NCBI GenBank assembly: GCA_965277405.1
Contig: OZ255726.1
Span: 426,280-490,279, forward strand
Direction of reading: 5' to 3'
Source of the DNA: Gammaproteobacteria bacterium
Lineage (GTDB): Bacteria > Pseudomonadota > Gammaproteobacteria > G965277405
DNA length: 64,000 nt
The notes beneath the pieces are model-generated. The model made no database searches and was not told the DNA's origin. It saw only the letters and a list, made by a program, of their open reading frames with translations. The stretch's first letter is position 1. Every line of letters begins with the position of its first letter. Made by a program: the position numbers and the translations under genes. Positions 6,076 to 50,639 of this stretch are shown piece by piece.

Positions 6076-6091
6076 ACAGCAAACAACAGCG

Positions 6092-17142: not shown

Positions 17143-17423
17143 GGAACCTCTAATTAAGTCGCTGATGGAGCGAGTTTGATGGCAATTGCTGATGATTGCA
17201 AGGCGCATTCCGCAGGCGCATGCTGTAGCATATACGCCAAGGGATGCAACACAGCAAGTACCGCTACCATCAAACCCAAAGTATATTCAACAGAAGGACG
17301 GGAAAAACGCTGCGCTCACGTCGTTGCACTTGATAATACCACCAGTATTATCTGCGCACTGCGTCTAGTTATCATCAGCGTTTTTTCTCCGTCTCGCCCA
17401 TCATGGACTTAATCAGAGCTTCC
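17143..17423. mobile_element. MITE-like element (IS5-family derived), complete copy with CTAA flanks
   Basis: GGAACCTCTAATTAAGTC...GGACTTAATCAGAGCTTCC; CTAA at 17139-17142 and 17424-17427. Confidence 0.7.
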
Positions 17424-17427
17424 CTAA

Positions 17428-18636
17428 GGAAGCTCTGATTAAGTCCCAAACAACAGCAATATCAGCTACAAAGATATACAATGGTGAATCTATTTGAATA
17501 TTTGAATAAGCGGATAATCTTATGAAACAAACAACTTTTGCCAGTGCTGCATACGACCACAAGAAAGTAACAACAAAACGTGAAAAATTCTTGCAGTCGA
17601 TGGACAAATTAGCTCCATGGCAACGGTTGTTAGCGTTAATAGAACCGCATTATCCCAAGAAAGGGAATGGCCGCCCACCAATTAATATGCAGACCATGTT
17701 ACGCGTTTATTGTTTACAGCAATGGTACAACTTATCAGACCCAGGGGTAGAAGAAGCACTATATGACATGGAAAGCATGCGGCGTTTTGCCCATATAGAG
17801 CTGATAGACGATGCCATCCCTGATGAAACTACCATCTTGAACTTCCGCAGGATCATAGAAAAGCATCAACTCAGCGTCAAGATACTTGCTGTGGTGAATG
17901 AGTATTGTATGGAAAATAATATAACAATCTCACAAGGGTCGATGGTTGATGCCACGATCATCCATGCACCATCATCTACGAAGAATAAAGAGAAAGCCCG
18001 TGATCCTGAAATGCATCAAACAAGGAAAGGCAATCAGTGGTATTTTGGCATGAAGATTCATATAGGAACTGACGCTAATAGCAATATGATTCATAGCGCG
18101 ACAGTGACAGCCGCGAATGAAGCTGACATCAATGAACTCCCAAAATTGCTGCGTGAAACAGATAAGGTTATCTTTGCCGATGCAGGATATACGAGCGACA
18201 GTTATAAACGCGGCTCGCGTCATCTTGGGATAGATTGGCGTGTGAATGATAAACGCAAGCCAAAGCAGCAAATGAGCACCTCGCAGCGCAAACGCAATAG
18301 ACAGAACTCTAAGGTGCGCGCCCGGATTGAGCACTGTTTTCGGGTAATCAAATGTCAGTTTGGTTATAAGAAAGCTCGCTACAAAGGACTAGAAAAGAAC
18401 CGAGTACAAGTATTTTCTTTGCTTGCATTGACGAACTTATACATGCTTCGAGGACGACTAACAGGATAGAACCGCCAAAAATTCAAGAAAAACAGTAAAA
18501 AACAGTAAAAAACAGTAAAACAGCAACACGAAGATCAGCGAAATGATCAAATATTGACCATTGAAAATTATTGCTATTATTTTTTTGGAGTATATGCGAG
18601 TTATTGGAGTATATGAGCGTCTTAATCAGAGCTTCC
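17428..18636 (+). mobile_element. IS5-family insertion sequence (1209 bp) with perfect 16-bp TIRs and 4-bp CTAA flanks
   Basis: Left end GGAAGCTCTGATTAAG at 17428; right end CTTAATCAGAGCTTCC ending 18636; CTAA at 17424-17427 and 18637-18640; single transposase ORF inside. Confidence 0.8.
17522..18469 (+). CDS. IS5-family DDE transposase
   Basis: 315 aa; close resemblance to IS5 transposase (DPEMHQTRKGNQWYFGMKIHIGTD, FADAGY, VRARIEHCFRVIKCQFGYKKARYKGL). Confidence 0.9.
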   Translation: MKQTTFASAAYDHKKVTTKREKFLQSMDKLAPWQRLLALIEPHYPKKGNGRPPINMQTMLRVYCLQQWYNLSDPGVEEALYDMESMRRFAHIELIDDAIPDETTILNFRRIIEKHQLSVKILAVVNEYCMENNITISQGSMVDATIIHAPSSTKNKEKARDPEMHQTRKGNQWYFGMKIHIGTDANSNMIHSATVTAANEADINELPKLLRETDKVIFADAGYTSDSYKRGSRHLGIDWRVNDKRKPKQQMSTSQRKRNRQNSKVRARIEHCFRVIKCQFGYKKARYKGLEKNRVQVFSLLALTNLYMLRGRLTG

Positions 18637-19226: not shown

Positions 19227-19299
19227 CCATCCAGCATCGATGCGAATCACTGCATGATGGCGTTCTCTGCAAATTTATTGCGAAGCTGCAGACCCTTAG

Positions 19300-19584
19300 G
19301 GAAGCTCTGATTAAGTCGCTGATGGAGCGAGGTTGCCTGCAATTGCTGATGATTGCAAGGCGCAAACCGCTAAGCGCATGCCGTAGCATATACGCCAAGG
19401 GATGCAACACAGCAAGTACCGCTTGTAGGCAAACCATCATATATTCAATAGAAGGACGGGAAAAAACGCTGCGCTAACGTCGTTGCAGCACTTGATAATA
19501 CCACCAGTATTATCAAGTGCTGCGCCTAGTTATCATCAGTGTTTTTTCTCCGTCTCGCCCATCATGGACTTAATCAGAGCTTCC
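19300..19584. mobile_element. MITE-like element (IS5-family derived), complete copy with TTAG target duplication
   Basis: GGAAGCTCTGATTAAGTCGCTGATGGAGCGAG...GGACTTAATCAGAGCTTCC flanked by TTAG at 19296-19299 and 19585-19588. Confidence 0.75.
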
Positions 19585-19612
19585 TTAGACAATAGCGTAT
19601 TCAAACTCGCGG

Positions 19613-23624: not shown

Positions 23625-23916
23625 GGAAGCTCTGATTAACTCGCTGATGGAGCGAGTTTGATGGCAATTGCAGATGATTGCAAGGCGCAAACCGCTGAGT
23701 GCATGCCGTAGCATATACGCCAAGGGATGTAACACAGCAAGTACCGCTGCCGCAAACCCAAAGTATATGTCAACTCAACGACGGGAAAAACGCTGCGCTA
23801 ACGTCGTTGCAGCACTTGGCAATACCCCCAGACCCACCAGTGTTAGCTGCGCGCTGCGCTTAAATTTCATCAGCGTTTCTTCTCCGTCTCGCCCGTCATG
23901 GACTTAATCAGAGACT
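23625..23916. mobile_element. MITE-like element, copy beginning immediately after hisD stop codon
   Basis: hisD TAA at 23622-23624 directly followed by GGAAGCTCTGATTAACTC; distal end degenerate (GGACTTAATCAGAGAC). Confidence 0.7.
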
Positions 23917-28681: not shown

Positions 28682-28905
28682 TTTTCGCATACAATCCTTG
28701 GTAACATAGACCGCGGCTTGCAATTGTTTTGCAATCGTTTTGCAATCGTTAGTGCGGCACATTATGTTTTGCGGCGAGTAAGCGCAGCTGTCGCTATCCT
28801 TGTCGCTATCCTTGAGGAGGAACAATATTGCATACAAAAAAACCTTGGCGTTTTTCTGTAAGTAGCTATAATAGCTACCTTAACTTTAATTTCATAGGTA
28901 TGAAC

Positions 28906-29193
28906 ATGAAGACTATCTCATCAAGAGATGCCCAAAACGCATTCGGTCACTTTCTGGATACAGTACAGCGTGAGCCAGTAATCGTGACTAAAAGGAACCG
29001 CCCTGTTGGAGTTATGTTGTCTATGGAAAACCTGCCAGCAATCTTTGAGCTTGCTGATAGTTTGAGAGAGACCATCAAAGCTGGTGTAAAGTCTGGGCTG
29101 GCAGATGCCAAAGCTGGCAAAGGCACAGCGCTTACCGCTGATTACATTGCTGATTTAAAGCAGGAGTTGCAAGCGAGAATAAATACCAGATAA
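28906..29193 (+). CDS. Type II antitoxin, Phd/YefM-like N-terminus with ParD-like C-terminal tail
   Basis: MKTISSRDAQNAFGHFLDTVQREPVIVTKRNRPVGVMLSMENL; start chosen at ATG 28906 (AGGT 6 nt upstream); alternative TTG at 28828 behind GAGGAGG noted. Confidence 0.75.
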   Translation: MKTISSRDAQNAFGHFLDTVQREPVIVTKRNRPVGVMLSMENLPAIFELADSLRETIKAGVKSGLADAKAGKGTALTADYIADLKQELQARINTR

Positions 29194-29202
29194 AAAGAAC
29201 GA

Positions 29203-29520
29203 ATGCAGCATTATCGTATCCAAATTATGCCTACTGCCAGCAAAGGGTTACTTGAAATTGGTGAGTATATTGCTGTGGATAACCCTGTCAGGGCGGTAAC
29301 GTTTGTTGTCGAAATAACCAATTCACTGCAAAAAACTCTATCGTTGTTTCCTCTTTCAGGAAAAGTTGCCGCAGACTTGGAAATGGATGAAGAAATTAGA
29401 ATATTGCCTCACGGTAATTACATTAGCTATTATCGTGTTGTAGCGCACAAACAGCTGGTAGAAGTCTTGTATGTGTTTAATGCCAGTCGTGATATTCAAG
29501 CGCTTATGACACAACTATAG
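29203..29520 (+). CDS. Type II toxin, RelE/ParE family
   Basis: 105 aa; typical RelE/ParE size and pattern (YRIQI...EEIRILPHGNYISYYRVVAHKQLVEVLYVFNASRD), 9 nt downstream of antitoxin. Confidence 0.8.
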   Translation: MQHYRIQIMPTASKGLLEIGEYIAVDNPVRAVTFVVEITNSLQKTLSLFPLSGKVAADLEMDEEIRILPHGNYISYYRVVAHKQLVEVLYVFNASRDIQALMTQL

Positions 29521-29814
29521 GCATAATCCCTTAAAATTAGCATGAGTTAAAAGCACAATATTGTTACAATCTGCATAGAAGAATTTGCATAAAAATCAAA
29601 ATTCACGGATTCACAAATTATTATAATACTCAAACTACATGCAGAGGGAGTGTCAGTTGCTGATCTGTCGATAACACGGCATAAGGCAATACGGTATATA
29701 AATAGCGTTCAAAATATGCTGGTTGGGATATTTCGTTCTTACAGGAGTTACAGGAACTGCGAGCTGAAAATTGACAACACAACAGATGTATGCTGAAAAG
29801 TTCTTGATTGCTGC

Positions 29815-29888
29815 AATACGGCATGCGCCTTGCAATCATCAGCAATTGCAGGCAAACTCGCTCCATCAGCGAGTTAATCAGAGCTTCC
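29815..29888. mobile_element. MITE-like element, terminal fragment
   Basis: GCGCCTTGCAATCATCAGCAATTGCAGGCAAACTCGCTCCATCAGCGAGTTAATCAGAGCTTCC, about 70 bp downstream of hsdR 3' end. Confidence 0.55.
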
Positions 29889-29960
29889 ATAGCTTAATTT
29901 TAAACAAATATACAATAATCACCCCGCACTTTTATGGTTGAGTTAATTTTTAAGCAATTC

Positions 29961-32816
29961 CTAGCCACCCATTCCATTGATAAAAGTCTCTACAAAATTT
30001 ACTGTTTTATTTAAAATCCTATCTCCAACAGCTTTACGGTTTAAAATATTAGGCTTAACACCTTCTATTAAATCTAATAAGTCATCACGTAATGGCTCTC
30101 TTTCTGCATACAGATAATCTTCAATGAGCTTTTGTGTTTTTTCTGATGATAAATTTTCTTCTTTTACAAATACTGCAAATGCCTTTTGCTGTTCTTCTGC
30201 CCAGAATTTATCAAACTCTTGTGGTATAGTTGCAGAATCTGCTATCGCAGGTAAATTATCTTCTATAAACTTTTCTATCAACTCTCTTTTACTTCTTAAA
30301 TTAGCTTCTCCAGTTAATAAATCTACAACCTCTTTACGCTTTGCTTCTCGTTCTGATTTTTTAACATCTTTTAAAGTTGCCAATAGTTTTAAAATATATG
30401 TAACATTAATTTCGTCTCTATGAATCAATTCTAATTCAAAATCTACATCATCGAGTATAGACACTTTTTCTTTGGCAGTATCGAGTTTTGTCTTTTGCCA
30501 TAAATCCAGATACTTGCTGCTGTAATCGTTAAACAACTGCTCTTGCATTGCCAAATTTTCCCAATTGAAATCAGCAAAAGTTGTCATTACGTTTTTTATA
30601 CGCATCAGCTCTCTAAAAGCTCGGATAAATTCTAATTCGTCTGCTTCACTCAGCAAATCATCAACACTATTTACAGTTGGTGCTATTTTTAATAAGTTTA
30701 CAAACGCCTCATTGAATTTTTGCGTATATTCTTCTTGCGGCTTCATTATAACAACATCTATAGCTTCTTTGTTACCAAAGAGTGTTATCGCTTGATCTGT
30801 CGCTTTTTTAAGATTGCGAAACACTACGATATTACCTTGAGATTTCTGCTCGTTGACAATTCTATTTGTCCGTGAGTACGCTTGTATTAAACCGTGATAT
30901 TTTAAATTTTTATCTACGTATAAGGTGTTTAATGACGGACTGTCGAAACCTGTTAAGAACATATTTACCACTAATAAAATATCTATTTTTTGCTCTTTTA
31001 CTTTCTTCGATATATCGTTGTAATAATTATAAAATGATTGGCTATCTTTTGTTGAAAAATTAGAGCCAAACATTTCGTTATAATGCCCTATATAACTGGC
31101 TAACTTATCTCTTTTATGTATATTTAAACCGTATAAGGCTGGCGATTCTGCTACTACCGATACCTCTTCTGGAATATATCCGTTGGCATCTGCATCTTCT
31201 TCGTTGGCTACATAACTAAATATGGTTGCTATTGTTAGATTGTGTGTGCCTTCTTCTTTTTTACGCTGTAGAATATCATAATAATTTACCAACATATCTG
31301 TACCACCGACACAAAACATTGCTGTAAATTCTCTGTTATGCGTTTTGCGGTTGTGATTTGCAATAATATAATCTACTATCTTTTCTAAGCGCTTTGATGA
31401 TTCCATTAACTCTTTACGGTCTATGTCCTCTACTTCAATATCTATTGCTGTAGCAGATTTTTTTTGTTGGTATTTGCCGACATATTCTACTGCAAATTTT
31501 AGTACGTTTTCATCTTGTATAGCATCTGTAATAACGTATTTATGCAAGCAGTTGCCAAACAATTCTTTAGTAGTGCGTTTGCCTAATTCGTTTTTAACTG
31601 CATTGTCTGCAAATATTGGCGTTCCTGTAAAACCAAACATTTGGTAATTGTTAAAAAATTCTTTGATACGCCTATGTGTTTCCCCAAATTGACTGCGATG
31701 GCACTCATCAAAAATAAAGACAATACGCTCATCTTTTAGTTGTTCCATTTTAGCTAAATAGCTCTTGTTACTAATAGCTGTATTTAGCTTTTGAATGGTG
31801 GTTACAATAATTTTGGTGTCATCACTAAATTGTTTTACCAATGCTTTGGTATTGTCTGTACCATCTATACTACCCTTAGAGAAACTATTAAATTCTCTGG
31901 TAGTTTGGTAATCTAAATCTTTTCTATCAACCACAAATGCCACTTTTTGAATCTCTGGCATTTTCATAATAATTTGACTTGCCTTAAATGATGTTAGCGT
32001 TTTTCCTGAGCCTGTGGTATGCCATATATAACCGTTGTGTGTACTATTATTTACCTTGTCAATAATGCTTTCTACTGCATAGTATTGATACGGTCTAAGC
32101 ACCATTAATATTTTATGGGTTTCGTTTAACACAATGTACTTACATATCATTTTAGAGATATGACAAGGTTCTAAAAACTCATTTGCAAACCCATTGAGAA
32201 TATTAGTTACACGCTTGTTTTCTTTATTTGTCCAATAGAATGTCTGCTTAAAAGATTGACGCTTATTGTTTGCATAGTATTTGGTATTTACACCGTTGCT
32301 AATTACAAATATCTGTACATATTGAAACAAAGCCGATTTGGCTGCGAACGAATGGCTTTGATAACGGTTTATTTGCTTAAAAGCTTCTTTTATTTCCAAG
32401 CCTCTACGTTTTAATTCTATTTGCACTAGGGGTAGGCCATTTACTAATAAGCTAAGGTCGTAACGGTTTTTATAACTCCCCTCTATAGTTACTTGACTAG
32501 TAACTTGATATTGATTTTGACACCAATGCTCGGTATTTAGAAACTCAAAATATAAGTTATCGCCATTATCTCTGACAATATGTTGTTTTTCTCTCAGGGT
32601 TTTAGCTTTTTCAAATACAGAGCCTTTAGTTAGTATATTGAGTACACGGTCAAATTCTTTAGCAGTAAACATAATATTGTTATTATGTTTTTCTAACTGT
32701 GTTTTTAGGTTCGCTAATAAGGAGGCTTCATTGGGGATACTTACTTTGGTATAACCAATGTTTGTCAACTGTTGTATTAACTGTTTTTCTAATATTTGTT
32801 CTGTTTGTGTATTCAT
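29961..32816 (-). CDS. hsdR: Type I restriction enzyme R subunit
   Basis: 951 aa; helicase motifs (HTTGSGKT, FIFDECHRSQFG) and overall HsdR layout; last gene of RM operon. Confidence 0.9.
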   Translation of the reverse strand: MNTQTEQILEKQLIQQLTNIGYTKVSIPNEASLLANLKTQLEKHNNNIMFTAKEFDRVLNILTKGSVFEKAKTLREKQHIVRDNGDNLYFEFLNTEHWCQNQYQVTSQVTIEGSYKNRYDLSLLVNGLPLVQIELKRRGLEIKEAFKQINRYQSHSFAAKSALFQYVQIFVISNGVNTKYYANNKRQSFKQTFYWTNKENKRVTNILNGFANEFLEPCHISKMICKYIVLNETHKILMVLRPYQYYAVESIIDKVNNSTHNGYIWHTTGSGKTLTSFKASQIIMKMPEIQKVAFVVDRKDLDYQTTREFNSFSKGSIDGTDNTKALVKQFSDDTKIIVTTIQKLNTAISNKSYLAKMEQLKDERIVFIFDECHRSQFGETHRRIKEFFNNYQMFGFTGTPIFADNAVKNELGKRTTKELFGNCLHKYVITDAIQDENVLKFAVEYVGKYQQKKSATAIDIEVEDIDRKELMESSKRLEKIVDYIIANHNRKTHNREFTAMFCVGGTDMLVNYYDILQRKKEEGTHNLTIATIFSYVANEEDADANGYIPEEVSVVAESPALYGLNIHKRDKLASYIGHYNEMFGSNFSTKDSQSFYNYYNDISKKVKEQKIDILLVVNMFLTGFDSPSLNTLYVDKNLKYHGLIQAYSRTNRIVNEQKSQGNIVVFRNLKKATDQAITLFGNKEAIDVVIMKPQEEYTQKFNEAFVNLLKIAPTVNSVDDLLSEADELEFIRAFRELMRIKNVMTTFADFNWENLAMQEQLFNDYSSKYLDLWQKTKLDTAKEKVSILDDVDFELELIHRDEINVTYILKLLATLKDVKKSEREAKRKEVVDLLTGEANLRSKRELIEKFIEDNLPAIADSATIPQEFDKFWAEEQQKAFAVFVKEENLSSEKTQKLIEDYLYAEREPLRDDLLDLIEGVKPNILNRKAVGDRILNKTVNFVETFINGMGG

Positions 32817-32860
32817 TTGTTCTATTAAAATATGCCTAAGGAAAGATATCCTCTATTATT

Positions 32861-33765
32861 TTAATTTTCTGACCATAATGGATTTAATTCCCAATTATTT
32901 AGAAAACCTAATTTATATATAGGAACGTTTGGATTATTTCTAATAAGTTCAATAATTTTATCTTTGATATGAAGATCAGGAGCAACTTCGTTTGAAAGAT
33001 AAACTAATGTTGAAATAATTAAAAAAGGTTTCTTTTTTTGCACTTCAGTTATTGGTGAATTTAACCAATCATACATTGGGTTTATAATGTTATCAGTTGG
33101 TCTAATAGCCATACTTCTGCTCCAAAGTCTTGAATGGTGAGCAATAATATTTCTTACATAAACTATCGCCCCTAACCAACTTGAAAGTTCACTATGAAGG
33201 TGTAATCCCATTTCTTTCGCTATTTGCGTCTTTTCTGGAAGCTGGTGTTTAATGTTTTTGTATAATTTAGAAAGACTACCCATTGAGACAACCTCTAAAG
33301 TCTTCCAAGACTCAGCATCAATCTTAGGATACTTTCTTTTATGGTCTCTTATAAAAATTTCACTACTTCTATTAAATTCCTTATTCATGATTGCAACAGA
33401 AGATAAGTGATGGTTTGTATTTGTAAAAAATGAAACGTTTAAATGCCATAAAGCATCATATCGTAAAGACATATGATAAATCATTTTTGTTCTTAATGCT
33501 ATTTCTATTCTTTCTATAGCATCAAATAAGATTAGTTTTAAATGCCTATCAAAATTATAGCGCTCAATTACAGTTTCAAAATAAGTGTTTGGGTGAAATT
33601 TATGTTGTACAAAATCACATTGCATATCCCACCAATAGCTTTTAATCGATAATAACTTATTGTGGATAAAAAATGAGTTGCAGAAACCTCATCTTTAAAC
33701 AGCATATCTCTGTCCTTGAGTTGCTGTAATTGTTGTGCTATGCTAAGCGTTGGTTTAGAAGTCAT
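32861..33765 (-). pseudogene. Abi_2 (AbiD/AbiF-like) abortive-infection gene, interrupted by a 1-nt frameshift
   Basis: ORFs 33568..33765 and 32861..33625 overlap in different frames; N-terminal part ends ISYYRLKA, second part resumes YWWDMQ; shift maps to A4 tract (plus-strand T4 at 33640-33643). Confidence 0.65.
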
Positions 33766-33893
33766 AGCTTAAATAAAATGACCCGAGTGCAGTTCTTATG
33801 GTATGCAACTCGGGTTCTGTTACTACAAAGCTACAAACTTTATACCAATTTTGACGACTTTCTACCAATTTTTACGAATTTTTAACATTTTCA

Positions 33894-35414
33894 CTATACC
33901 AACATCTGTTGTAATAAGCCTTTTTTATAGAATTTTGTATGTTCTATTTTTTTATTGGTCAATTCTATTTTTTTATCTATTGATGATAGGAAATTGGCGA
34001 TTTTTTGTTGTTCTCTGGGTAGTGGAACATTAAGATTCAAAGAAGCAAGTTGTTTATTATATAAATGAACAACAGAATTGCCTTGTGCTAATTTAGCTAT
34101 ATCCATTTTTTTACTGTTATTCAATAAATAAGATAGGAATACACCATTTAGTTTAGATTTAATTATGTTCAAATCTCCTCCTAAAATCACACCCTTTTTC
34201 AAAACACAAGAAGCTGTGGCAATATCTAACCGTGTTTCACCTGAAGAAGGTATAATAACATCATTTTCTTCACTTAATACAGAGTCCCTTAAAGGAACAT
34301 TTGTTTTATAAATTATTGAATTAATTACTTCATTGTATGTCGTGTAAAGTTCTCCATAACGAATACATTCATTTACACCATCACTGACAATATCACTTTT
34401 TGAAACTCCTTTACCTTTTAAAAATTTCGCAATATTTCCCAACTTCTTCTCCTCCCATTCCCCTTCAAACTCATTCCCATTATCATCTTTAAACCTCAAC
34501 TCTTGTTTAAAGATTTTTTGCATTACCCCTTTTTTGTATTGCTCTAAAAGAGTTTTCTTTTTTTCTAAGGTTTTGACACGGTTATCTATGGCTGTTAGGA
34601 AATTGGCGATTTTTTGTTGTTCTTTTTTTTCGTTTGGAAAATAAACTTCCATTTGCCTTAGGTTGGTATTATATAGTCTTTTAATAATTCCACCATCAGA
34701 TGTTTGCCATCTTAGAGTTGAATAACAATAAAATAGAAAAGTATTTAGTATTTGTTGTTCATTATTTTCAAGCCAAACAATATTTGAATCCTGATAATAT
34801 GCATCCGAACCATCATATACTACTAATCTTCCAATAGTTCCAGATGCAGAAATAAGTATATCACCAATATTTGGAAACGAATACAGACTCTTATACTTTT
34901 TATATAAATCAATTGGAATATATGAATCAGAATCACTGCCAAATGTTCCAATTTTGTAAAAAGGGACAGAGTTATTTGACTCAGTCGTTGTTTGCTCTTT
35001 AAAAATCCTTTTACACATCAAAGGTCTTCCAATATTTCCTAATTTCTTCTCCTCCCATTCCCCTTTAAACTCAGGAAACCGCAATCGAGGAATATTCTTC
35101 TTTAAGGATATAGGAAAAGGAATTTTACACGTATTTATAATTTGTTTAAATGAGGTTGAAACCTCATTAATATCTATAATATCTACCTTGTACGGCAGCA
35201 AAGAATCATCTAAATCATCTCTTAAACTCGCCAATATCATTGGTGAAATAATAGTACTATGTTCCAAAGCAATATCCAAATCAGAATTGTATTTGGTTTG
35301 GTTTTTTGCCCTAGAGCCAAACACCCATACTTTACAATCTGTAGTAAGATGTTTTTGTAGAATATCTCTTATAATATAAAATTCCTTTGGGCTAATATCA
35401 AAATTAATCTTCAT
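33894..35414 (-). CDS. hsdS: Type I RM specificity subunit HsdS with in-frame N-terminal nucleotidyltransferase (MNT/HI0073-like) domain
   Basis: First ~105 aa: VWVFGSRAKNQTKYNSDLDIAL...YKVDIIDI (pol-beta NTase GSx10DxD); remainder two-TRD HsdS with duplicated EGEWEEKKLGNI and EQQKIANFL(T/S)(A/S)ID coiled-coil spacers; no stop or obvious internal start between modules. Confidence 0.8.
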   Translation of the reverse strand: MKINFDISPKEFYIIRDILQKHLTTDCKVWVFGSRAKNQTKYNSDLDIALEHSTIISPMILASLRDDLDDSLLPYKVDIIDINEVSTSFKQIINTCKIPFPISLKKNIPRLRFPEFKGEWEEKKLGNIGRPLMCKRIFKEQTTTESNNSVPFYKIGTFGSDSDSYIPIDLYKKYKSLYSFPNIGDILISASGTIGRLVVYDGSDAYYQDSNIVWLENNEQQILNTFLFYCYSTLRWQTSDGGIIKRLYNTNLRQMEVYFPNEKKEQQKIANFLTAIDNRVKTLEKKKTLLEQYKKGVMQKIFKQELRFKDDNGNEFEGEWEEKKLGNIAKFLKGKGVSKSDIVSDGVNECIRYGELYTTYNEVINSIIYKTNVPLRDSVLSEENDVIIPSSGETRLDIATASCVLKKGVILGGDLNIIKSKLNGVFLSYLLNNSKKMDIAKLAQGNSVVHLYNKQLASLNLNVPLPREQQKIANFLSSIDKKIELTNKKIEHTKFYKKGLLQQMLV

Positions 35415-35835
35415 AAAAAGTTTTTAGCTTTTGTAAAAAATATTCAGCCTCTGATAAAAAAGCAGGAATTTCTGCCACAATATCTATCGCAATATTTTCG
35501 TTATAACTATTAGAAGTTGTGTTGCTATTTTGCCTGTACACAGCCCATACATCCCAACTATGGAGTAAAATCCCTTTACTAAACCCCTCTCTTATAAGTT
35601 TTTGAAAAGAATATTCTTTAATTTCACTTGGGGTTTCTGGAATATTAGCAAGGTGTCTTCTCAGCATTTTGGTAGTTAATTCATAAGAATACTCAAAACG
35701 CTTAATACAAGCATCTCTAATATATTCACTATAACTATTTTTATTGCTGTGAAAATAAGATAACGCTTTTTTAAAACTTTCTAAAGCGTTTTCTAAGGAA
35801 CTTATATCTAATTTTTCATTAAAATTATTATTCAT
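35404..35835 (-). CDS. HI0074-type nucleotidyltransferase substrate-binding protein (HEPN-clan four-helix bundle)
   Basis: 143 aa; CIKRFEYSYELTTKMLRRHL resembles conserved core of NTase_sub_bind family; stop overlaps NTase-HsdS start by 11 nt; sits 4 nt after hsdM stop. Confidence 0.65.
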   Translation of the reverse strand: MNNNFNEKLDISSLENALESFKKALSYFHSNKNSYSEYIRDACIKRFEYSYELTTKMLRRHLANIPETPSEIKEYSFQKLIREGFSKGILLHSWDVWAVYRQNSNTTSNSYNENIAIDIVAEIPAFLSEAEYFLQKLKTFYED

Positions 35836-35838
35836 ATT

Positions 35839-37494
35839 CTAAAATGGTGTCTCAATACCTAATTCTTTACAAAAAGAAGCAATAATATCGTCTGTTTTCT
35901 TTAAATTTAAATCTAATATTTGTATTTCTTTAGCAACTACCTTAATATTTACTTGCTCTTCTTCTGCAGAAGTATCGACATAACGAGGTATATTAAGGTT
36001 GTAATCGTTCTCAGCTATTTCATCTAAGGAGGCTGTATAGCTGTATTTGTCTTCAATTTTACGCCCCCTATATGTAGTTATTAATTTATCTATATGAGCT
36101 TGTCTTAAAACATTTTGGGTTTTTACCTTTTCAAAATGTTTGCTCGCATCAATAAATAAAATATTTTTAGGGTTTTCTCTACATTTTTTAAATACCAAAA
36201 TACAAGTAGGGATGCCTGTACCATAAAATATATTGGCAGGTAAACCAATAACAGCATCTAAATAATTTTTTTCTTCAATTAAATATTTACGGATATGAGC
36301 TTCGGCACCACCTCTAAATAACGCCCCATGTGGCAATACTAATGCCATACTGCCGTTATCGTCTAAATGATATACCATATGCTGTACAAAAGCAAAATCT
36401 GCCTTATTCCTCGGTGCTAATTTACCGTATTGGCTAAACCTATCGTCACTCATAAAGAGTTGGCTAGCACTCCACTTTGCAGAAAATGGCGGATTGGCTA
36501 CAATAGCCTCAAAACGCAGGTCTATATGTTGTGGGTGTTCTAAGGTATCTTCTTGCTTAATATCAAATTTGCGATAATGTAAATCGTGTAATATCATATT
36601 CATACGTGCTAAGTTGTAGGTAGTACGGTTGAGTTCTTGGCCGTAAAAGTTGTTTACGTTATTATCTACTTCTTTGGCTACACGTAATAGTAATGAACCG
36701 CTGCCACAACTTGGGTCATATACCGATTTTAGTTTTTTTTTTCCTGTGGTTACCAATTTAGCCAATACCATGCTTACCTGTTGCGGTGTATAAAATTCGC
36801 CTGCTTTTTTACCTGCTCCACTGGCAAATTTGCCAATTAGATATTCATAGGCATCGCCCAATACATCTGATTCGGTTTGTTCTAATTTAAAATCAATTTT
36901 ACTTAAATGTGCGAGTACTTTAGCAATAATTTCATTACGCGCCGCTGGTGTTTTACCTAATTTGGTGGAGTTTAAATCCATATCCTCAAAGAGGTTGTCA
37001 AAATCTTCTTCACTATCCGTACCCATTGTACTGTTTTGGACGTTGATGAGGATTTTTTGTAAATCTTCTAGTATAAAATTATGCTTGGTATGGTAGGTTG
37101 CTGTCGTGTCTTTTGTTATATTATTACTTTCTTTAATACCTTCATTGTGATTGCCGCGTTTTGCGACAGCAGAAAATAATTCTGACGGTTTTAAGAAGTA
37201 TCCTAATCCCCCCCCTACTAAAGAGTTTTCGCTTATTGCTTTGATATATTTTTTTCCTGTTTCTGTATTTTCGTCTATAGCGGCAAACAAAAATGTATCG
37301 CCTCCTTCTTTAATAATTTTATTAGCATATATTTCCATTTTTTCGGATAAGTATTTATAGAAAATAAAGCCTAATATATAATCACGAAACTCATCTGCAT
37401 TCATTTTACCCCTAAGGGTATTGGCAATATTCCAAAGTTGTTGTTCTAATTGTTTTTTATAGTCTTCTGACATTGTGGGTCTCAATTGTTGCAA
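35839..37494 (-). CDS. hsdM: Type I RM N6-adenine DNA methyltransferase subunit
   Basis: 551 aa; catalytic NPPF motif (IVANPPFSAKW), AdoMet-binding region DPSCGSGSLL. Confidence 0.9.
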   Translation of the reverse strand: MQQLRPTMSEDYKKQLEQQLWNIANTLRGKMNADEFRDYILGFIFYKYLSEKMEIYANKIIKEGGDTFLFAAIDENTETGKKYIKAISENSLVGGGLGYFLKPSELFSAVAKRGNHNEGIKESNNITKDTTATYHTKHNFILEDLQKILINVQNSTMGTDSEEDFDNLFEDMDLNSTKLGKTPAARNEIIAKVLAHLSKIDFKLEQTESDVLGDAYEYLIGKFASGAGKKAGEFYTPQQVSMVLAKLVTTGKKKLKSVYDPSCGSGSLLLRVAKEVDNNVNNFYGQELNRTTYNLARMNMILHDLHYRKFDIKQEDTLEHPQHIDLRFEAIVANPPFSAKWSASQLFMSDDRFSQYGKLAPRNKADFAFVQHMVYHLDDNGSMALVLPHGALFRGGAEAHIRKYLIEEKNYLDAVIGLPANIFYGTGIPTCILVFKKCRENPKNILFIDASKHFEKVKTQNVLRQAHIDKLITTYRGRKIEDKYSYTASLDEIAENDYNLNIPRYVDTSAEEEQVNIKVVAKEIQILDLNLKKTDDIIASFCKELGIETPF

Positions 37495-37580
37495 TCATCA
37501 AAATATAAATCTTTAGGGTCAGTAGTTACGAACATATTATTTTGATTGATATGCCTTATCGGCTGTAACCATGCTCTTAA

Positions 37581-37869
37581 GGAAGCTCTGATGAAGCCCA
37601 TGATGGGCGAGACGGAGAAAAAACGCTGCTGATAACTAGCCGCAGTGCGCAGATAATACTGGTGGTCTTGTGGGTGCTGCCAAGTGCTGCAACGACGTTA
37701 GCGTAGTGTTTTTTCCCGTCCTGCTGTTGAATATACTTTGGGTTTGCGGCAGCGGTACTTGTGCTGTGCTGCATCCCTTGGCGTATATGCTACGGCATGC
37801 GGTTTGCGCCTTGCAATCATCAGTAATTGCCAGCAAACTCGCTCCATCAGCGAGTTAATCAGAGCTTCC
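37581..37869. mobile_element. MITE-like element, complete copy immediately upstream of the RM operon
   Basis: GGAAGCTCTGATGAAGCCC...GAGTTAATCAGAGCTTCC; followed by another TIR-like stub GGAATCTCTG. Confidence 0.7.
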
Positions 37870-37953
37870 CATGAGGAATCTCTGCGTAAAACCGTGCTTA
37901 GAATTTGATTGCAGCATAAACTTGAATGGCTGCTATACAACATGTTGTTGCTG

Positions 37954-39660
37954 TTATTCTGCATAGTTGTTATGTTGAGTAGCTTCATCCGCGGCTTCTG
38001 CTAATTCCATTTGGGTAATAATCGTTTCAGCGTCATCAATAATATCCTGAATACTCTGTTGTTCTTGTGGTGATGCGCCGGCAATTAAGCTGTCGGTAAT
38101 AAGTTGATTCACCCGTTGTTTGCGCAGTATTAAAATATCATGCAACGATTGGGCGATAAGGATGCGGCGGTCTGGATAGTTGCTCGTTAATGCTTGAATA
38201 ATTGTATCAGCGCAGCGTGGCAGCAATAATACCAAGTGCTGTGCTACATCTTCTGGTTGCAGTCGATTATTTTCAAACGCTGTATATATAAATTCTGCAG
38301 CATGTTCTGGGCTGAATGAAATGGCTTGGGCGAGCAGTTTTATCTCTGGGTCTAATATATCAGTGAGCTGGTATTCATATGCAGGGTTTAACGGTGTTAT
38401 TTGATGCGTAGCAACTTGGGTGATCATTTGCACGCTTGTTTCCTTGTATAAGCGCTTGCGGTTGAAGATGCTTTGCCAAAACACATACACAGAGTAGATA
38501 ACATGGACTACTGCTATCGACATATACAACGCAGCATTGCCCAAAATCTCCATTAAGAAGCCGCCAATCTGCTGCCCTAACACGCTAAAAATTCCGTATA
38601 ACAGCATCATTTTGCTCATGATTGGCAAAATATCTTCATTTTTAATGCGCTCAAACATATGCGCATATGCAAGGGGATACATGCACGCTGCCATGCCGCT
38701 TGCCAAGACGAAGCTCGCTATTAACAACCAATCTGGATACATGAACGGTTGTGATAGTACAATCGATACATTGGCAAGAGCACCGACGGCAGAAACTATA
38801 ATTGCCAATGCCTGCTTATTGATGGTATCCGCTAGCCAGCCAACAGGAAATTGAAATATCATTGAGCCGATATAAAAACTCGCTAACACAATGGTAATGA
38901 CGAAAAATGGATGGGTGGCGACAATGCTATTTGCATACACTGGGGTTAAGCTGATTGTTGATAAAGTAACAAGCCCGGCACACATCATCCCAACTACACT
39001 CACTGAAGAAATCGACCACAATTGTTTGATTGGAATTTTCTTTGTGTCCTCAGAAAATGACGGAACAGGGCGATTTGTTAAACCAAGAGGAATCAGTGAA
39101 ACGCAAAAACATATAGCAATTAAGCCAAATAACCTAGGGTCATCGGCGTTGGTAATGTGCAAAATAAACGGCGCGATAATCCCGCCTAAGCCATACGAGA
39201 TTTGATATGTTGAAAAAATCCTGCCACGGGTAGTGCTGGTGCTTAACCCCGTCAACCAACTTTCCATAATGATAAAATTTGTAGTAATCGCATAGCCAAA
39301 CAATAGGCGCATCAATGCTACAAACCAAACAGAATCAACATAGCCGTGCGTAATAGCCAGCACACTGATAACCGCAGACATTACTGAAAATGCGCGTATA
39401 TGACCAACGCGGGTAATCAGCCTTGAACCAAAAATACAAGAGAGAATAGTTCCAATAGAATAACAGGACATTGCCAGGCCAATCAAGCCAGTTGATACTC
39501 CGTTATTCTCTAATCTAATCGGCAGGGTTATAAATAGCAGCGCGTGACCAATGACACCAATCAGTGTTGCAGACAATATAGAATTTGTCCGTCCAAGCAA
39601 TTGCAACATCCACATAACAACACTCTGTGAGTACTTAAGAAACTTCAGTTTAATATACAA
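37954..39660 (-). CDS. MFS transporter (YcaD-like) with long hydrophilic C-terminal extension
   Basis: 12 predicted TM segments in first ~400 aa, then ~170 aa charged tail; true start possibly an internal Met (MWMLQLLG). Confidence 0.7.
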   Translation of the reverse strand: MYIKLKFLKYSQSVVMWMLQLLGRTNSILSATLIGVIGHALLFITLPIRLENNGVSTGLIGLAMSCYSIGTILSCIFGSRLITRVGHIRAFSVMSAVISVLAITHGYVDSVWFVALMRLLFGYAITTNFIIMESWLTGLSTSTTRGRIFSTYQISYGLGGIIAPFILHITNADDPRLFGLIAICFCVSLIPLGLTNRPVPSFSEDTKKIPIKQLWSISSVSVVGMMCAGLVTLSTISLTPVYANSIVATHPFFVITIVLASFYIGSMIFQFPVGWLADTINKQALAIIVSAVGALANVSIVLSQPFMYPDWLLIASFVLASGMAACMYPLAYAHMFERIKNEDILPIMSKMMLLYGIFSVLGQQIGGFLMEILGNAALYMSIAVVHVIYSVYVFWQSIFNRKRLYKETSVQMITQVATHQITPLNPAYEYQLTDILDPEIKLLAQAISFSPEHAAEFIYTAFENNRLQPEDVAQHLVLLLPRCADTIIQALTSNYPDRRILIAQSLHDILILRKQRVNQLITDSLIAGASPQEQQSIQDIIDDAETIITQMELAEAADEATQHNNYAE

Positions 39661-39664
39661 CGAT

Positions 39665-39803
39665 TTGCGGCAATTGCGGTACTTCTGTGTAGCATCCTTT
39701 GGCGTATATGCTACGCCATGTGCTTAGCGGTTTGAGCCTGGCAATCATCAGCAATCGCAACAAGCTCACTCCAAATCGACTAAATTAAAGGTTCCTTAAA
39801 ATA
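39665..39803. mobile_element. MITE-like element, degenerate partial copy
   Basis: GCATCCTTTGGCGTATATGCTACG...GGCAATCATCAGCAATCGC resembles MITE core with substitutions. Confidence 0.4.
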
Positions 39804-40373: not shown

Positions 40374-40669
40374 GGAATCTCTGATTAACTCCATGATGGA
40401 TAAGACGGAGCAACAACGCTGACGATAACTGTGTTGTGCGCAGGTCACACTGGTGGGTCTTGTGGGTATTAGCAAGTGCTGCAACGACGTTAGTACCGCT
40501 TTTTTTCCGTATTAAGTTCAATAAACTTGTGGTTTGCGGCATTGCTTACGCTTGCTGTATTGCATCCGTTGGCGGATATGCTACGGCAGGCGCTTATGCG
40601 GTTTGCGCCTTGCAAATCATCAGCAATTGCCCGCAAACCCGTGGTATCAGCGAGTTAAGCTGCTGTTCC
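40374..40669. mobile_element. MITE-like element, diverged complete copy
   Basis: GGAATCTCTGATTAACTCC...GAGTTAAGCTGCTGTTCC with recognisable internal core. Confidence 0.55.
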
Positions 40670-43020: not shown

Positions 43021-43097
43021 TGGGGTGGATGATGGGACTTGAACCCACGACAACCGGAATCACAATCCGGGGCTCTACCAGCTGAGCTACACCCACC
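43021..43097 (-). tRNA. tRNA-His: tRNA-His (anticodon GTG) with encoded G-1 and CCA
   Basis: Minus-strand sequence GGTGGGTGTAGCTCAGCTGGTAGAGCCCCGGATTGTGATTCCGGTTGTCGTGGGTTCAAGTCCCATCATCCACCCCA folds as cloverleaf; anticodon loop TTGTGAT; G-1:C73 pair typical of tRNA-His. Confidence 0.85.
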
Positions 43098-46699: not shown

Positions 46700-46900
46700 A
46701 GCGGGGGATGGTGTGCCCACGTTACCGTCTCACAGTTGTTTCCTTGAACCGCGGCTCAAGGGTATGGCAACCAAGTGGTATGTTGGGATCGTAAGACGTA
46801 GTCACGATACACGCCCATACCGGAGAGTTACCATAATAGTTTTCTCATTGGCTCAGAAACATACTTTAATAACGAATAACCCAGGCACGCAATCAGTATA
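46700..46900 (-). ncRNA. ssrS: 6S RNA (SsrS) candidate; boundaries approximate
   Basis: Immediately upstream of and co-oriented with ygfA, the conserved position of ssrS in gammaproteobacteria; contains GUUUCUGAG near 5' region and hallmark hairpin CCCUUGAGCC-GC-GGUUCAAGG. Confidence 0.45.
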
Positions 46901-47648: not shown

Positions 47649-48227
47649 ATGGCCCGAATAACTGCCGACGATTGTTTGGCGAAAATTCCTAACAGATACG
47701 ACTTGGTTTTGGCAGCAACCAAACGCGCCCATCAACTCGCTCAAGGAATCAAAGACCCTTTGATTCATAATAGTACCAATAAACCTGCAGTATTGGCATT
47801 ACGTGAAATAGCAGCAGGGCTAATAACCGAAGAATCTCTGCTAGGCATCGAAGCAGAGTTGAATAACCAACCAATCGAATTAGATGAAGACGCAATGGTG
47901 CGAAAATTTGCAGAACACGACCGTGCCCAAGAAGAAGAACGAGTACGGCAAGAAGAAATGCAACGAGAAATGATTGCCCGTCAAGGTCGGCGTGCTGAGC
48001 AAGACCGTCAAAATGAGCGGCTTGCAGCAGAACAAGATGCCGCCAATCAAGTTGAGGAAAATACCGCAAATGAAGATGAGGAAGATGCAGTAACCGATGA
48101 CGAGTCAGCAGCAACATTGTCTGCTGACGCATTGCTTGATGCTGAAGTAGCTGAGCAATTCACCACCGAATTTGAAGAAAGCGATGACTTATCCAGCGGT
48201 GATTTTGAAGAAAGTGAAAAAGAGTAA
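47649..48227 (+). CDS. rpoZ: RNA polymerase omega subunit with long acidic C-terminal extension
   Basis: Start at ATG 47649 ([30 protein letters not shown]) after GGAG; about 90 aa omega core followed by about 100 aa Glu/Asp/Gln-rich tail. Confidence 0.75.
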
Positions 48228-48245
48228 CCTGACATACCATCCACT

Positions 48246-48380
48246 ATGAAACGAACATACCAACCCAGTAATATCAAACGACACAGGACGCACGGTTTTC
48301 GTGCTCGTATGGCAACAAAAGCAGGTCGCGCAGTGCTTTCACGCCGCCGCGCCAAAGGCCGCCATAGACTTACTGTATAA
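48246..48380 (+). CDS. rpmH: 50S ribosomal protein L34
   Basis: Own translation: [44 protein letters not shown] (44 aa); below ORF-track size cutoff. Confidence 0.9.
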
Positions 48381-48740
48381 TTGCGTATTACCGCACTGAG
48401 CTCTGGCAAACAAATTTCGCTTGTCATCGCCCAACACACCTTCAAATGTCATCATGCGAATTTTGTCACGTTTGTGCGCACCAGTGATCAGCAACTATGT
48501 CGGTATGTCGCGATTATTGCCAATCGAAATATAAAAAACGCCGTGCTCCGCAACTACACAAAACGCATCATAAGAAATGCGCTACGCAGCTTTGATTGTG
48601 GTGTGCAATGCGACGTCGTGATTATTGCTAAACGTGCTGCCAAGCAAGCCAATAAGGTGCAGCTGCGTGCAGCGATACAAAGCACTATGCGGCGTGTGCA
48701 AAAAAAACACACAGCTAGCAACCTCTGCTTAAATCCATGA
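48381..48740 (+). CDS. rnpA: Ribonuclease P protein component
   Basis: 119 aa basic protein directly downstream of rpmH in conserved rpmH-rnpA-yidD-yidC order; start codon uncertain (TTG at 48381). Confidence 0.75.
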   Translation: MRITALSSGKQISLVIAQHTFKCHHANFVTFVRTSDQQLCRYVAIIANRNIKNAVLRNYTKRIIRNALRSFDCGVQCDVVIIAKRAAKQANKVQLRAAIQSTMRRVQKKHTASNLCLNP

Positions 48741-48776
48741 TACAGCGAGTTAACCAGAGGTTCCTCTACTCATAAC

Positions 48777-49031
48777 ATGCAAATGATACGCAAAACAGCT
48801 ATAAAAATAGCAGTTGGAATTATTCGAAGCTACCAACTGTGTCTTTCTCCATTACTACCAATGAGTTGTCGATACCTGCCGACGTGCTCTGAATATGCCA
48901 TTGAAGCAATGCAACAACATGGTGTTGTATTCGGCAGTATTTTAACAATACAGCGTATTTGTAGCTGTCACCCATTTGGTGGACACGGCTATGACCCTGT
49001 GCCGCGCACAAAAAAAGTAACAAAACAATAA
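48777..49031 (+). CDS. yidD: Membrane protein insertion efficiency factor YidD
   Basis: YQLCLSPLLP..CRYLPTCSEYAIEA...HPFGGHGYDPVP. Confidence 0.85.
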   Translation: MQMIRKTAIKIAVGIIRSYQLCLSPLLPMSCRYLPTCSEYAIEAMQQHGVVFGSILTIQRICSCHPFGGHGYDPVPRTKKVTKQ

Positions 49032-49040
49032 GGAACGAGA

Positions 49041-50639
49041 ATGAATATCCGCAAAGCAGCTAAATACCTTCGTTATAGTTTATATGTGGGGGTGGCGGTA
49101 TTGTTGTACATGTGCTTCTTGCAGTGGGGGCATATGTTCTCCGTAATTCCAGACACAAATCAAAGTTCTGATGCAACAGCTGTGCAAATCCCAGGCGCAA
49201 TACAGCCACAAGAGATACCGAGAAATCATGTCGTATTACGCAATGACGTGCTCGATCTCGAAATAGACTTATACGGCGGCGATATAGTGAGCAGTAAGTT
49301 ATTGGCGTATGCAGTTAGCAAAGTTGATGCCACTCCAGTATCGTTATTGGAAGACTCTGACACCAAAAAATACATCGCTCAAAGTGGCTTAATTAGTAAT
49401 GTATCAGGCATCAACACCACCAAATTAAACTACACAACAACACAAAATACGAGGATCCTTGCCGACGGTGAGGATACGGTTTCTCTCACATTAACCAGTA
49501 TAGTCAATGATGTGGTGTTTACCAAAGTGTATAGTTTACAAAGAGGGAGTAATGCGATTGATGTTGCGCATTCGCTACAAAATAATAGCATGGCAACGAT
49601 CAGCACGCGGCTATATGGACAGATTATTAACGATGGCAAAGTCCCTGAATTTGACAATGGGCTGCAAATAAAACCATTTGACGGCATCGCCACAACAACC
49701 GCAGCAACAAGTTATCTCAAGAAAAAATTTGCTGACTTAGCAGAAGAACCGCTCGATGTTCGCGTCAAAGGCGGATGGATAGCAGTGTTGCAGCATTATT
49801 TTGTTTCTGCTTGGATTCCTGATCCAAACCAAGAATATCGCTATCAAAGCAATCTACGCAAAGACGGGTTGTATGTGCTCGGTTTTGTTGGTGATTCCCA
49901 AGAAGTGCTACCAAACGCAACGCTGACGTTGTTGAGCAAATTATACACTGGACCAAAACTTGCCAAAGTACTAGAAGCCCTTGCCCCCAACCTCGACTTG
50001 GTTATTGATTTTGGCTGGCTGTGGTTTATTTCTAAATACTTAGTGTTATTCCTCAATTATATTCAAGGAATTATACCTAACTGGGGAATTGCGATCATTG
50101 CGCTGACATTCTGTGTGAAGTTGGTGTTCTTCCCATTATCGCAAGCAGGGTACCGCTCCATGGCAAATATGCGCAAATTCACCCCAGAGATTCAGCGGTT
50201 GCGTGAAACATATGGTCATGATAAACAAAAATTATCACAAGAAACTATGGCATTGTATAAACGGGAGCGCATCAATCCAGTTGGAGGTTGTCTGCCAATT
50301 CTCGTGCAAATGCCTGTATTCATCGCCTTATATTGGGCACTTGTCGAAAGTGTCGAGCTGCGGCACGCACCATTTTTTCTGTGGGTGCAAGATTTATCCG
50401 CGCTTGACCCATACTTTGTCTTACCATTGCTGATGGGCGCCTCCATGTATGTCCAGCAAATGCTCAACCCAACACCACCGGACCCATTACAAGCAAAAAT
50501 ATTTCGTTGGATGCCAGTGGCGTTTACCGTGATGTTTCTCTGGTTCCCATCTGGCTTAGTGTTGTATTGGCTTACCAATAATGTCCTATCAATTATCCAG
50601 CAATATATTATTACCAAGCGGATTGCAACCGCCAAATAA
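49041..50639 (+). CDS. yidC: Membrane protein insertase YidC
   Basis: 532 aa; N-terminal TM, large periplasmic domain, C-terminal 5-TM core (QMPVFIALYWAL, WFPSGLVLYWLTNN). Confidence 0.9.
   Translation: MNIRKAAKYLRYSLYVGVAVLLYMCFLQWGHMFSVIPDTNQSSDATAVQIPGAIQPQEIPRNHVVLRNDVLDLEIDLYGGDIVSSKLLAYAVSKVDATPVSLLEDSDTKKYIAQSGLISNVSGINTTKLNYTTTQNTRILADGEDTVSLTLTSIVNDVVFTKVYSLQRGSNAIDVAHSLQNNSMATISTRLYGQIINDGKVPEFDNGLQIKPFDGIATTTAATSYLKKKFADLAEEPLDVRVKGGWIAVLQHYFVSAWIPDPNQEYRYQSNLRKDGLYVLGFVGDSQEVLPNATLTLLSKLYTGPKLAKVLEALAPNLDLVIDFGWLWFISKYLVLFLNYIQGIIPNWGIAIIALTFCVKLVFFPLSQAGYRSMANMRKFTPEIQRLRETYGHDKQKLSQETMALYKRERINPVGGCLPILVQMPVFIALYWALVESVELRHAPFFLWVQDLSALDPYFVLPLLMGASMYVQQMLNPTPPDPLQAKIFRWMPVAFTVMFLWFPSGLVLYWLTNNVLSIIQQYIITKRIATAK

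Follow-up and report, generated by a model that had tools for sequence, protein, structure and literature searches.

Abortive-infection proteins of the AbiF type are described as dimeric HEPN ribonucleases (RNases) in PMC12373285 and PMC12737573 (the latter summarizes Zilberzwige-Tal et al., Cell 2025), and the same sources attribute their neutralization, in a type III-like manner, to a cis-encoded upstream noncoding RNA (ncRNA), known as AbiFr, as RCd22 in Clostridioides difficile, and as Rfam family RF03085. Residues R210 and H215 of PbAbiF are essential (Zilberzwige-Tal 2025, as cited in PMC12373285). The Abi2, AbiF, and AbiD proteins have also been classed as HEPN proteins embedded in restriction-modification (R-M) operons, with an analogy to PrrC in EcoprrI (PMC3710099). 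The locus described here is found in a stretch of 64,000 nucleotides (nt), referred to below as the window, from the gammaproteobacterial contig OZ255726.1 (positions 426,280 to 490,279; GenBank assembly GCA_965277405.1), where a gene for an Abi_2-family protein lies between the hsdS and hsdR genes of a Type I R-M system and is split into two open reading frames (ORFs). With a probability of about 0.8, this gene represents the protein component of an AbiF-type RNA toxin-antitoxin system carried in a mobile Type I R-M cassette and has been killed by the loss of one G from the codon for Gly43.

The split gene and the elements just upstream of it are as follows (here and below, coordinates are those of the window unless a contig is named).

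32825-33765, minus strand: abiF (Abi_2/HEPN toxin) pseudogene over its full ancestral length, which starts with the ATG at 33765 and stops at the original TAA (32827-32825), as supported by the PF07751 and 8VZ6 matches of the repaired protein
33568-33765, minus strand: N-terminal fragment, an ORF of 65 amino acids (aa) in which residues 1-42 are authentic AbiF and the rest is an out-of-frame tail
32861-33625, minus strand: C-terminal fragment, an ORF of 254 aa that starts at the internal Met48 and encodes the HEPN core in a different frame from that of the start codon
33638-33643, minus strand: frameshift site, AAAAGC in the window versus AAAAGGC in relatives, with the remaining G at 33639
32861-32863, minus strand: premature TAA, which is TCA (Ser302) in relatives
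33137-33154, minus strand: HEPN Rx4H catalytic motif R205-N-I-I-A-H210 (followed by H211), aligned with RNSCCH of 8VZ6
33775-33821, minus strand: conserved hairpin RNA followed by a U-tract, a candidate antitoxin resembling abiF RNA or AbiFr, identified by covariation and by the covariance model R1
33826-33833, minus strand: predicted promoter box TAGCTTTG, which fits TAnnTTTG, just 5' of the hairpin

The 65-aa ORF reads MTSKP...STISYYRLKA and then continues with unrelated residues until its stop at 33568. Shifted back by one base, the translation runs ...KSYWWDMQCDF... and meets no stop before the TAA at 32863-32861. An earlier interpretation, made from the letters of the window and hereafter called the sequence-only reading, held that the two ORFs jointly encode an Abi_2-type protein and that a 1-nt deletion had split them. 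Both proposals are borne out, far beyond chance: the frames are one base out of register, with a gap in the alignment with relatives, and the joined translation spans positions 1-183 of the 184 in the Pfam Abi_2 profile (PF07751), scoring 171.1 bits (cutoff, 25.6; E = 4.1e-50). The 254-aa fragment alone matches profile positions 23-183 (151 bits, E = 4.7e-44), and a Pfam search with the 65-aa fragment alone gave no match. Residues 4-298 of the repaired protein also align with residues 9-299 of PbAbiF from a Prevotellaceae bacterium (PDB entry 8VZ6; E = 9.2e-38), and R205, N206, A209, H210, and H211 of the catalytic motif are invariant in 28 homologues. A working member of the Abi_2 family would have an uninterrupted ORF of ∼300 aa, and intact 313-aa versions of abiF are present in the related contigs L004, L005, L007, and L010; the window has the 65-aa and 254-aa ORFs in its place, split by the one-base deletion at 33639, so its copy is a pseudogene of the family and not a working member. 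The AlphaFold2 model of P0001, an intact relative, was too poor to be used (mean predicted local distance difference test score of 64, with values below 60 at the N terminus).

The relatives also show which base is missing. All sampled copies of the cassette come from two related ENA assemblies, ERZ26859071 and ERZ26859072; two of the contigs, L005 and L010, carry intact abiF between host flanks that are 99-99.8% identical to those of the window and, by this measure, belong to the species of the window and have the cassette at an identical place in the chromosome. In DNA alignments, six relatives (L004, L005, L007, L008, L009, and L010) read TTAAAAGGCTATTGG where the window reads TTAAAA-GCTATTGG, the A4 run at 33643-33640 is identical in all seven sequences, and the pairwise gap falls at window position 33639 against both L005 and L010. 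Since A4 precedes GG in the six relatives and a single G in the window, the lost base is, by alignment, one G of the Gly43 codon GGC at 33639 and not an A. The 28 homologues, none of them truncated or frameshifted and with identities down to about 64%, all have Gly43. The sequence-only reading located the A4 run (T4 at 33640-33643 of the plus strand) correctly but placed the deletion within it, which the alignment with the six relatives rules out; likewise, its one-nucleotide repair does give a continuous, full-length Abi_2 protein, but the base to be inserted is a G instead of the A that it proposed. A second difference, an A at 32862 where the six relatives have C, converts TCA to TAA and removes a 12-aa C-terminal tail; because many homologues naturally stop at this point (298-301 aa), the change is probably harmless, and neutral, by itself.

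The position of the lesion next to an A-run had also suggested a slippage-prone switch, that is, a phase-variable or recoded gene in which slippage on the A-tract (transcriptional, replicative, or by −1 ribosomal frameshifting on A_AAA_G) would turn the toxin ON and OFF or set its dose. If Lys-tRNA slipped back by one base (−1) on UUA AAA G, it would again pair perfectly with AAA, the frame would be restored, and the product would read RLKSYWW. However, the P-site codon UUA would mispair with AUU, there is no full X_XXY_YYZ heptamer, and the 111 nt downstream fold no better than their shuffled versions (z = +0.65, with 148 of 200 shuffles as good), so that A_AAA_G is the only mark of programmed −1 frameshifting at this site. 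The conspecific gene and every other retrieved homologue are in frame, and neither the shift nor conserved recoding was seen in any homologue examined. A run of four A residues is, moreover, far shorter than the tracts known to slip, and the comparison of tract length, proposed as a check, found no variation of the kind seen in phase-variable contingency genes: A4 is constant in the window and its six relatives, and what is polymorphic is the G (GG versus G). A switch is hardly credible on these grounds, and of the three options offered by the sequence-only reading (sequencing error, pseudogene, and switch), the pseudogene is the best supported.

The upstream RNA was compared across 80 metagenomic loci (with homologues 59-82% identical), three loci from metagenome-assembled genomes (MAGs), and a Prevotella nigrescens plasmid locus. 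Every locus has the same layout, consisting of a TAnnTTTG box, the sequence AACAG-(U/A)ACCCGnnnnGCA-UACCAUAAGAAC-UGCnnnCGGGU-CAUUUUUUUU, a spacer of ∼10 nt, and the ATG. The box, which matches the −7 promoter consensus of Bacteroidota as described for Bacteroides promoters, is at a constant position in essentially all upstream regions listed. Among 49 distinct sequences of the 11-pair stem, 94.5% of the cells are paired and seven pairs change on both sides; none of 500 shuffles matched the observed pairing, partner columns slid out of register were at most 45% paired, and RNAalifold recovered the same stem. In the 64 kb of the window, the covariance model R1 has exactly one match (minus strand, 33821-33775), with a score of 73.8 bits (E = 4e-17) versus 69.9 bits in relatives with intact abiF. 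Each locus searched has at least one match directly ahead of abi, even those that had no part in building the model, and two of the loci (L073 and L078) have two tandem copies of the hairpin. Three changes in the RNA are private to the window: a U-U mismatch becomes an A-U pair at 33810, the consensus loop base is restored at 33797, and the U-tract is interrupted at 33774. Judged by its sequence, the RNA of the window is intact. A promoter and terminator scan of 29700-38000 returned counts at the level of chance, with a loop limit of 3-8 nt that misses this hairpin, whose loop has 12 nt.

The Rfam abiF model, RF03085, had no match at E ≤ 10 in window positions 33500-34100 and none at E ≤ 1 in the Prevotella locus (L091) or in 20 loci of the clade. 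It does match, with 59 bits, the RNA of locus L092, located upstream of the Phocaeicola Abi that is the closest plasmid-borne relative of PbAbiF found; the match of R1 to this canonical-type RNA is only marginal (19.5 bits). The RNAs of the window and L092 share their position, the leader, the outer stem (CCYG...CGGGU), and the U-tract and differ in the inner stem and loop. The window has the cis-encoded structured ncRNA that characterizes AbiF-AbiFr systems, although not one that belongs to RF03085, and this RNA is read here, from the sequence features shared with L092, as a divergent variant of abiF RNA/AbiFr.

Of the systems described so far, PbAbiF-AbiFr resembles this locus in having a full-length homologue with an aligned Rx4H motif and a structured RNA in cis immediately upstream of the ORF, as well as in the Bacteroidota-like origin that is apparent for the system in the window. 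It differs in that the ORF of the window is frameshifted and that its RNA has the inner stem and loop GCA-UACCAUAAGAAC-UGC, unseen by the Rfam model. In the AbiFCd-RCd22 pair of the C. difficile phage phi027, an Abi_2 (AbiD/F) HEPN toxin is likewise encoded downstream of a short ncRNA, which ends in a terminator, is cotranscribed with the toxin gene by read-through, and neutralizes the toxin as in type III systems (PMC12373285). That pair has two RF03085 motifs and resides in a prophage lysis module, in contrast to the single variant hairpin within a Type I R-M operon in the window. The founders of Abi_2, the lactococcal AbiD, AbiD1, and AbiF, share the Pfam family and the HEPN motif, and AbiD1 has, according to PMC12373285, a 5' leader with structure as well as a short upstream transcript that terminates prematurely; however, the lactococcal genes are plasmid borne, stand alone outside hsd operons, and are distant in sequence. 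PrrC of the Type Ic locus EcoprrI is also an HEPN RNase encoded among hsdM, hsdS, and hsdR as a second line behind restriction (PMC3710099). It is, however, an anticodon nuclease with an ABC-ATPase and a HEPN part, which is held latent by a complex with the R-M proteins and triggered by Stp of phage T4, whereas the protein of the window is an Abi_2 member with no ATPase domain and with an RNA partner, so that the likeness is positional only. The N-terminal ABC-ATPase and C-terminal HEPN anticodon nuclease that define PrrC and RloC were not seen in Pfam searches, which show Abi_2 alone across the protein.

Several points weigh against the interpretation of the locus as an RNA toxin-antitoxin system with a dead toxin. 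RNase activity, toxicity, RNA binding, and phage defense are all predicted from homology, and the antitoxin role of an RNA that the Rfam abiF model does not see is proposed from position, layout, and analogy. The internal ATG at 33625 could in principle yield a truncated protein. A single-base assembly error is conceivable, and the exact 254-aa product is recorded from one contig only, the 2.17-Mb source contig of the window itself; a cluster look-up placed hsdR there as well, whereas exact matching of both in the contig index returned nothing.

That the 254-aa ORF is expressed as a functional, N-terminally truncated AbiF from Met48 would be compatible with its ATG start, with the retention of Rx4H and of the larger part of Abi_2, and with its annotation as a protein in the source record. 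Such a product, however, would be without 16 invariant residues (Q12...Y38 Y39 R40 G43 Y44 W45 W46 D47), the block in which the family shows its densest conservation. Purine-rich sequence ahead of the ATG is limited to GGTGGG, which ends 2 nt from it and leaves no plausible spacing for a ribosome-binding site, and reinitiation is not favored because the ATG lies inside the upstream ORF, which stops 57 nt later. Among the best 120 of the 2,289 homologues matched in a database search with the repaired protein, none belongs to the 254-aa length class (the shortest listed has 279 aa). A functional truncated AbiF is, on balance, very improbable.

If the frameshift were an error of sequencing or assembly, the strain would have GGC and an intact abiF, with one G dropped from the consensus. 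Single-base indels are the commonest assembly error, and one related metagenome contig, L006, contains many of them. The window is nonetheless clean of such indels elsewhere: across ∼27 kb compared with L005, L006, and L010, the gap in abi is the only indel in alignable sequence that leaves the window with the shorter ORF, and the remaining coding indels break ORFs in the metagenome contigs where the window keeps the longer one. The affected site is a GG dinucleotide and not a long homopolymer, and the window allele forms a haplotype of its own, the same 1.25 kb containing about 22 substitutions that are private to it, which argues that it is not a mispolished version of the L005 allele. An error at this base therefore appears unlikely, and the frameshift is probably real and, as the divergence data discussed next suggest, recent.

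The abi gene of the window is 97.46% identical to those of L005 and L010, compared with 99.7-99.8% for hsdR, hsdM, the HEPN gene, and the MNT domain (99.8% for hsdR against that of L010). Its synonymous divergence (pS) is 0.055 versus 0.0018 in hsdR, and its ratio of nonsynonymous to synonymous divergence (pN/pS) is 0.32, a value indicating that the divergence of abi was built up under purifying selection and that the frameshift is recent relative to it. The differences of the window from L005 and L010 cluster in a single segment.

32671-35189, unstranded: recombinant tract of 2.5 kb, containing the first 150 nt of hsdR, abi, the intergenic RNA, and both target-recognition domains of hsdS

Within this tract, divergence from L005 and L010 is about 2.5% where the sequences can be aligned, which excludes both recognition domains of hsdS. 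At the level of sequence comparison, such a pattern bears the mark of a recombination event in which the specificity of hsdS was exchanged and abi was taken along, with either the lineage of the window or that of its conspecifics as the recipient. Relaxed selection alone is rejected as the source of the extra divergence of abi, because synonymous divergence is ∼30 times that of hsdR and pN/pS is 0.32; recombination fits better. As a separate observation, positions 17380-18700 of L005, when aligned with positions 1-1130 of L010, require 41 gap openings across hsdS, and the frame is open in L010 and not in L005; this stretch of L005 is probably a misassembled or collapsed consensus of several hsdS variants in the population instead of a true pseudogene.

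Other copies of the cassette have lost the toxin independently and in a different way. L008 and L009 (positions 10001-10162 in each) share an identical internal deletion of ∼770 nt in abi that leaves a 53-aa remnant (P0136), and both keep the RNA and an intact hsdR. The left breakpoint of the deletion, after GGCTATT, is 5 nt from the G that is missing in the window; with only two events, this proximity is treated as a coincidence. The left flanks of L008 and L009 are shared with contigs carrying the intact gene (L007 and L004, respectively) and the right flanks are not, so assembly chimerism across the shared 7.5-kb cassette is a possibility for these two alleles. Loss of the toxin with retention of the antitoxin would be, as expected, the safe way for a toxin-antitoxin system to decay. 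Another possibility is that the variant abiF RNA and its terminator, which would then represent a second structural class of AbiF RNA, have been co-opted as a gate on hsdR expression and kept by selection after the loss of the toxin. The RNA and abiF lie between hsdS and hsdR in ∼40% of the loci of the clade, which means that transcription of hsdR must cross the RNA terminator and the abiF ORF, and the RNA is fully kept in the toxin-dead alleles, both the frameshifted one and those with the deletion, with a score in the window that even exceeds that of relatives whose toxin is intact. We consider this gate rather unlikely.

The remaining genes of the cassette, with abiF placed among them, are as follows.

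29938-37474, unstranded: Type I R-M defense cassette of 7.5 kb (hsdM, HEPN gene, MNT::hsdS, abiF RNA, abiF, and hsdR)
29961-32816, minus strand: hsdR, intact, 951 aa, with HSDR_N, SWI2_SNF2, T1R_D3-like, and EcoR124_C domains; its start is 8 nt past the ancestral abiF stop
33894-35414, minus strand: hsdS with an in-frame N-terminal MNT nucleotidyltransferase domain, 506 aa, from Pfam matches
35404-35835, minus strand: HEPN gene (NTase_sub_bind, PF08780, E = 1.8e-25), overlapping the start of MNT::hsdS by 11 nt
35839-37494, minus strand: hsdM (N6_Mtase, E = 7e-112; HsdM_N)

The genes hsdM, hsdS, and hsdR are co-oriented, have uninterrupted ORFs, and encode the domains characteristic of a Type I R-M system. 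The sequence-only reading placed the abi gene between hsdS and hsdR and called this a known pattern; Pfam identifies both neighbors, on the same strand, and the order hsdS-abi-hsdR recurs in 19 of 49 related loci that have both flanks (about 40%), in line with the embedding noted in PMC3710099. In these loci, the gap between the hsdS match and abi is typically about 105-165 nt and contains the promoter box and the RNA, and a distance of typically 3-12 nt separates the stop of abi from the start of hsdR. The cassette also includes what appears to be an HEPN-MNT toxin-antitoxin pair in which the HEPN gene comes first and the specificity subunit carries the presumed antitoxin as a fusion: Polbeta/NTP_transf_2 matches cover residues 15-93 of the MNT::hsdS product, and Methylase_S begins at residue 119, in two matched stretches. 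The same fusion is present in L004, L007, and L008; the upstream regions of the other hsdS-abi loci gave no match to MNT. A database search with the MNT domain and the junction retrieved stand-alone MNT proteins, except for a truncated 136-aa copy in L005 and one partial protein from "Candidatus Thioglobus" that covers the junction.

The cassette has a G+C content of 31.7%, compared with 44.5-45.1% in the surrounding chromosome. The host, whose MnmE has no relative with more than 48% identity and whose named MnmE relatives are almost all from Gammaproteobacteria, is a deep-branching gammaproteobacterium with a G+C content of 45%. Elsewhere, the cassette occurs in other genomic backgrounds: L004 has all of it, at 95-96% DNA identity, in an unrelated genome and encodes P0001, the protein found by the repaired-protein search to be 94% identical, and L007, L008, and L009 have further copies, so that the cassette is known at 95-96% identity from two other genomic backgrounds. 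The flanks in these other carriers (L004/L009 and L007/L008) have the same low G+C content as the cassette (31-34%). L009 encodes a SusC-like receptor, which suggests Bacteroidota, and the closest annotated relatives of Abi are from Prevotella and Chryseobacterium. A scan of genome contigs with the repaired protein found three loci only, all in Bacteroidota MAGs, at 47-53% identity; a PLSDB search found no copy of the cassette in known plasmids. Given the contrast in G+C content, the low-G+C carriers, the SusC-like receptor, and these relatives, the cassette looks native to low-G+C Bacteroidota-like bacteria and imported into this gammaproteobacterium, in what looks like a recent cross-phylum transfer within one community.

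Several observations concern the surroundings of the cassette. A dispersed repeat family of ∼290 bp is dense in the window, with 74-97% identity between copies, and brackets the cassette: directly upstream of hsdM there is a full copy, and a partial copy of 73 nt with the same orientation follows directly downstream of hsdR.

523-855, 5948-6098, 14986-15272, 17143-17428, 19299-19587, and 23625-23913: repeat copies
29816-29888, 37578-37870, 39664-39795, 40374-40658, and 60376-60434: repeat copies, continued

The cumulative GC skew has its minimum at about 36-38 kb, beside the cassette, and an rpmH-rnpA-yidD-yidC-mnmE cluster is found at ∼48200-52040 (from gene calls on L006), 10-15 kb away; the cassette may thus adjoin the replication origin. 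Immediately downstream of hsdR, L010 carries a ParE-toxin/Phd-antitoxin pair at 5377-5991 (precomputed Pfam labels). In the window, the stretch at ∼28700-29600, with plus-strand ORFs at 28828-29193 and 29203-29520, is the second place where differences from L010 cluster, an 11-nt indel among them, and an NCBIfam search with the 105-aa window ORF in the stretch downstream of hsdR gave no match. Only two Rfam matches in the window reach the gathering level, both on the minus strand: a 6S RNA at 46710-46890 (48.2 bits versus a threshold of 46.4) and a tRNA at 43024-43096.

By analogy with PbAbiF and AbiFCd, intact copies of the system, in which the promoter box, the short hairpin RNA with its U-tract, and ∼10 nt precede the gene for a 313-aa HEPN RNase, would produce an RNase dimer held inactive by the RNA; phage infection would release the dimer, leading to RNA cleavage and abortion of the infection. 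In the window, loss of the G in the Gly43 codon would end translation from the true start after 65 residues and leave the catalytic Rx4H region out of frame, so that the toxin would be dead. The lesion is best pictured as a one-off mutation on an allele that was under purifying selection until recently and that arrived, or was retained, with the 2.5-kb recombination tract carrying different hsdS recognition domains. With the upstream RNA, hsdM, hsdS, and hsdR intact, the strain would keep restriction and lose its second-line abortive-infection layer. The gene is an ordinary pseudogene with a plain inactivating frameshift and not a switch, and the system adds one more example to a kind already known. 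The 254-aa ORF, which is on record for the source contig as a protein, deserves annotation as a fragment of a pseudogene.

The frameshift alone matters little, as it records the loss of one abortive-infection layer in a strain that keeps restriction. Together, the sampled copies form a clean natural series in which one cassette, in three host backgrounds from one community, has its toxin intact, frameshifted, or deleted and always keeps the partner RNA. More notable are the by-products: the variant abiF RNA missed by Rfam, the recombinant hsdS-abiF tract, the MNT-HsdS fusion, and the cross-phylum cassette itself, a defense cassette of ∼30% G+C with Bacteroidota-style signals in a deep-branching gammaproteobacterium of 45% G+C. 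For the family, they indicate that a large Bacteroidota-centered clade of AbiF uses a hairpin that the current Rfam abiF model misses, so that annotation pipelines will miss the RNA half of these systems.

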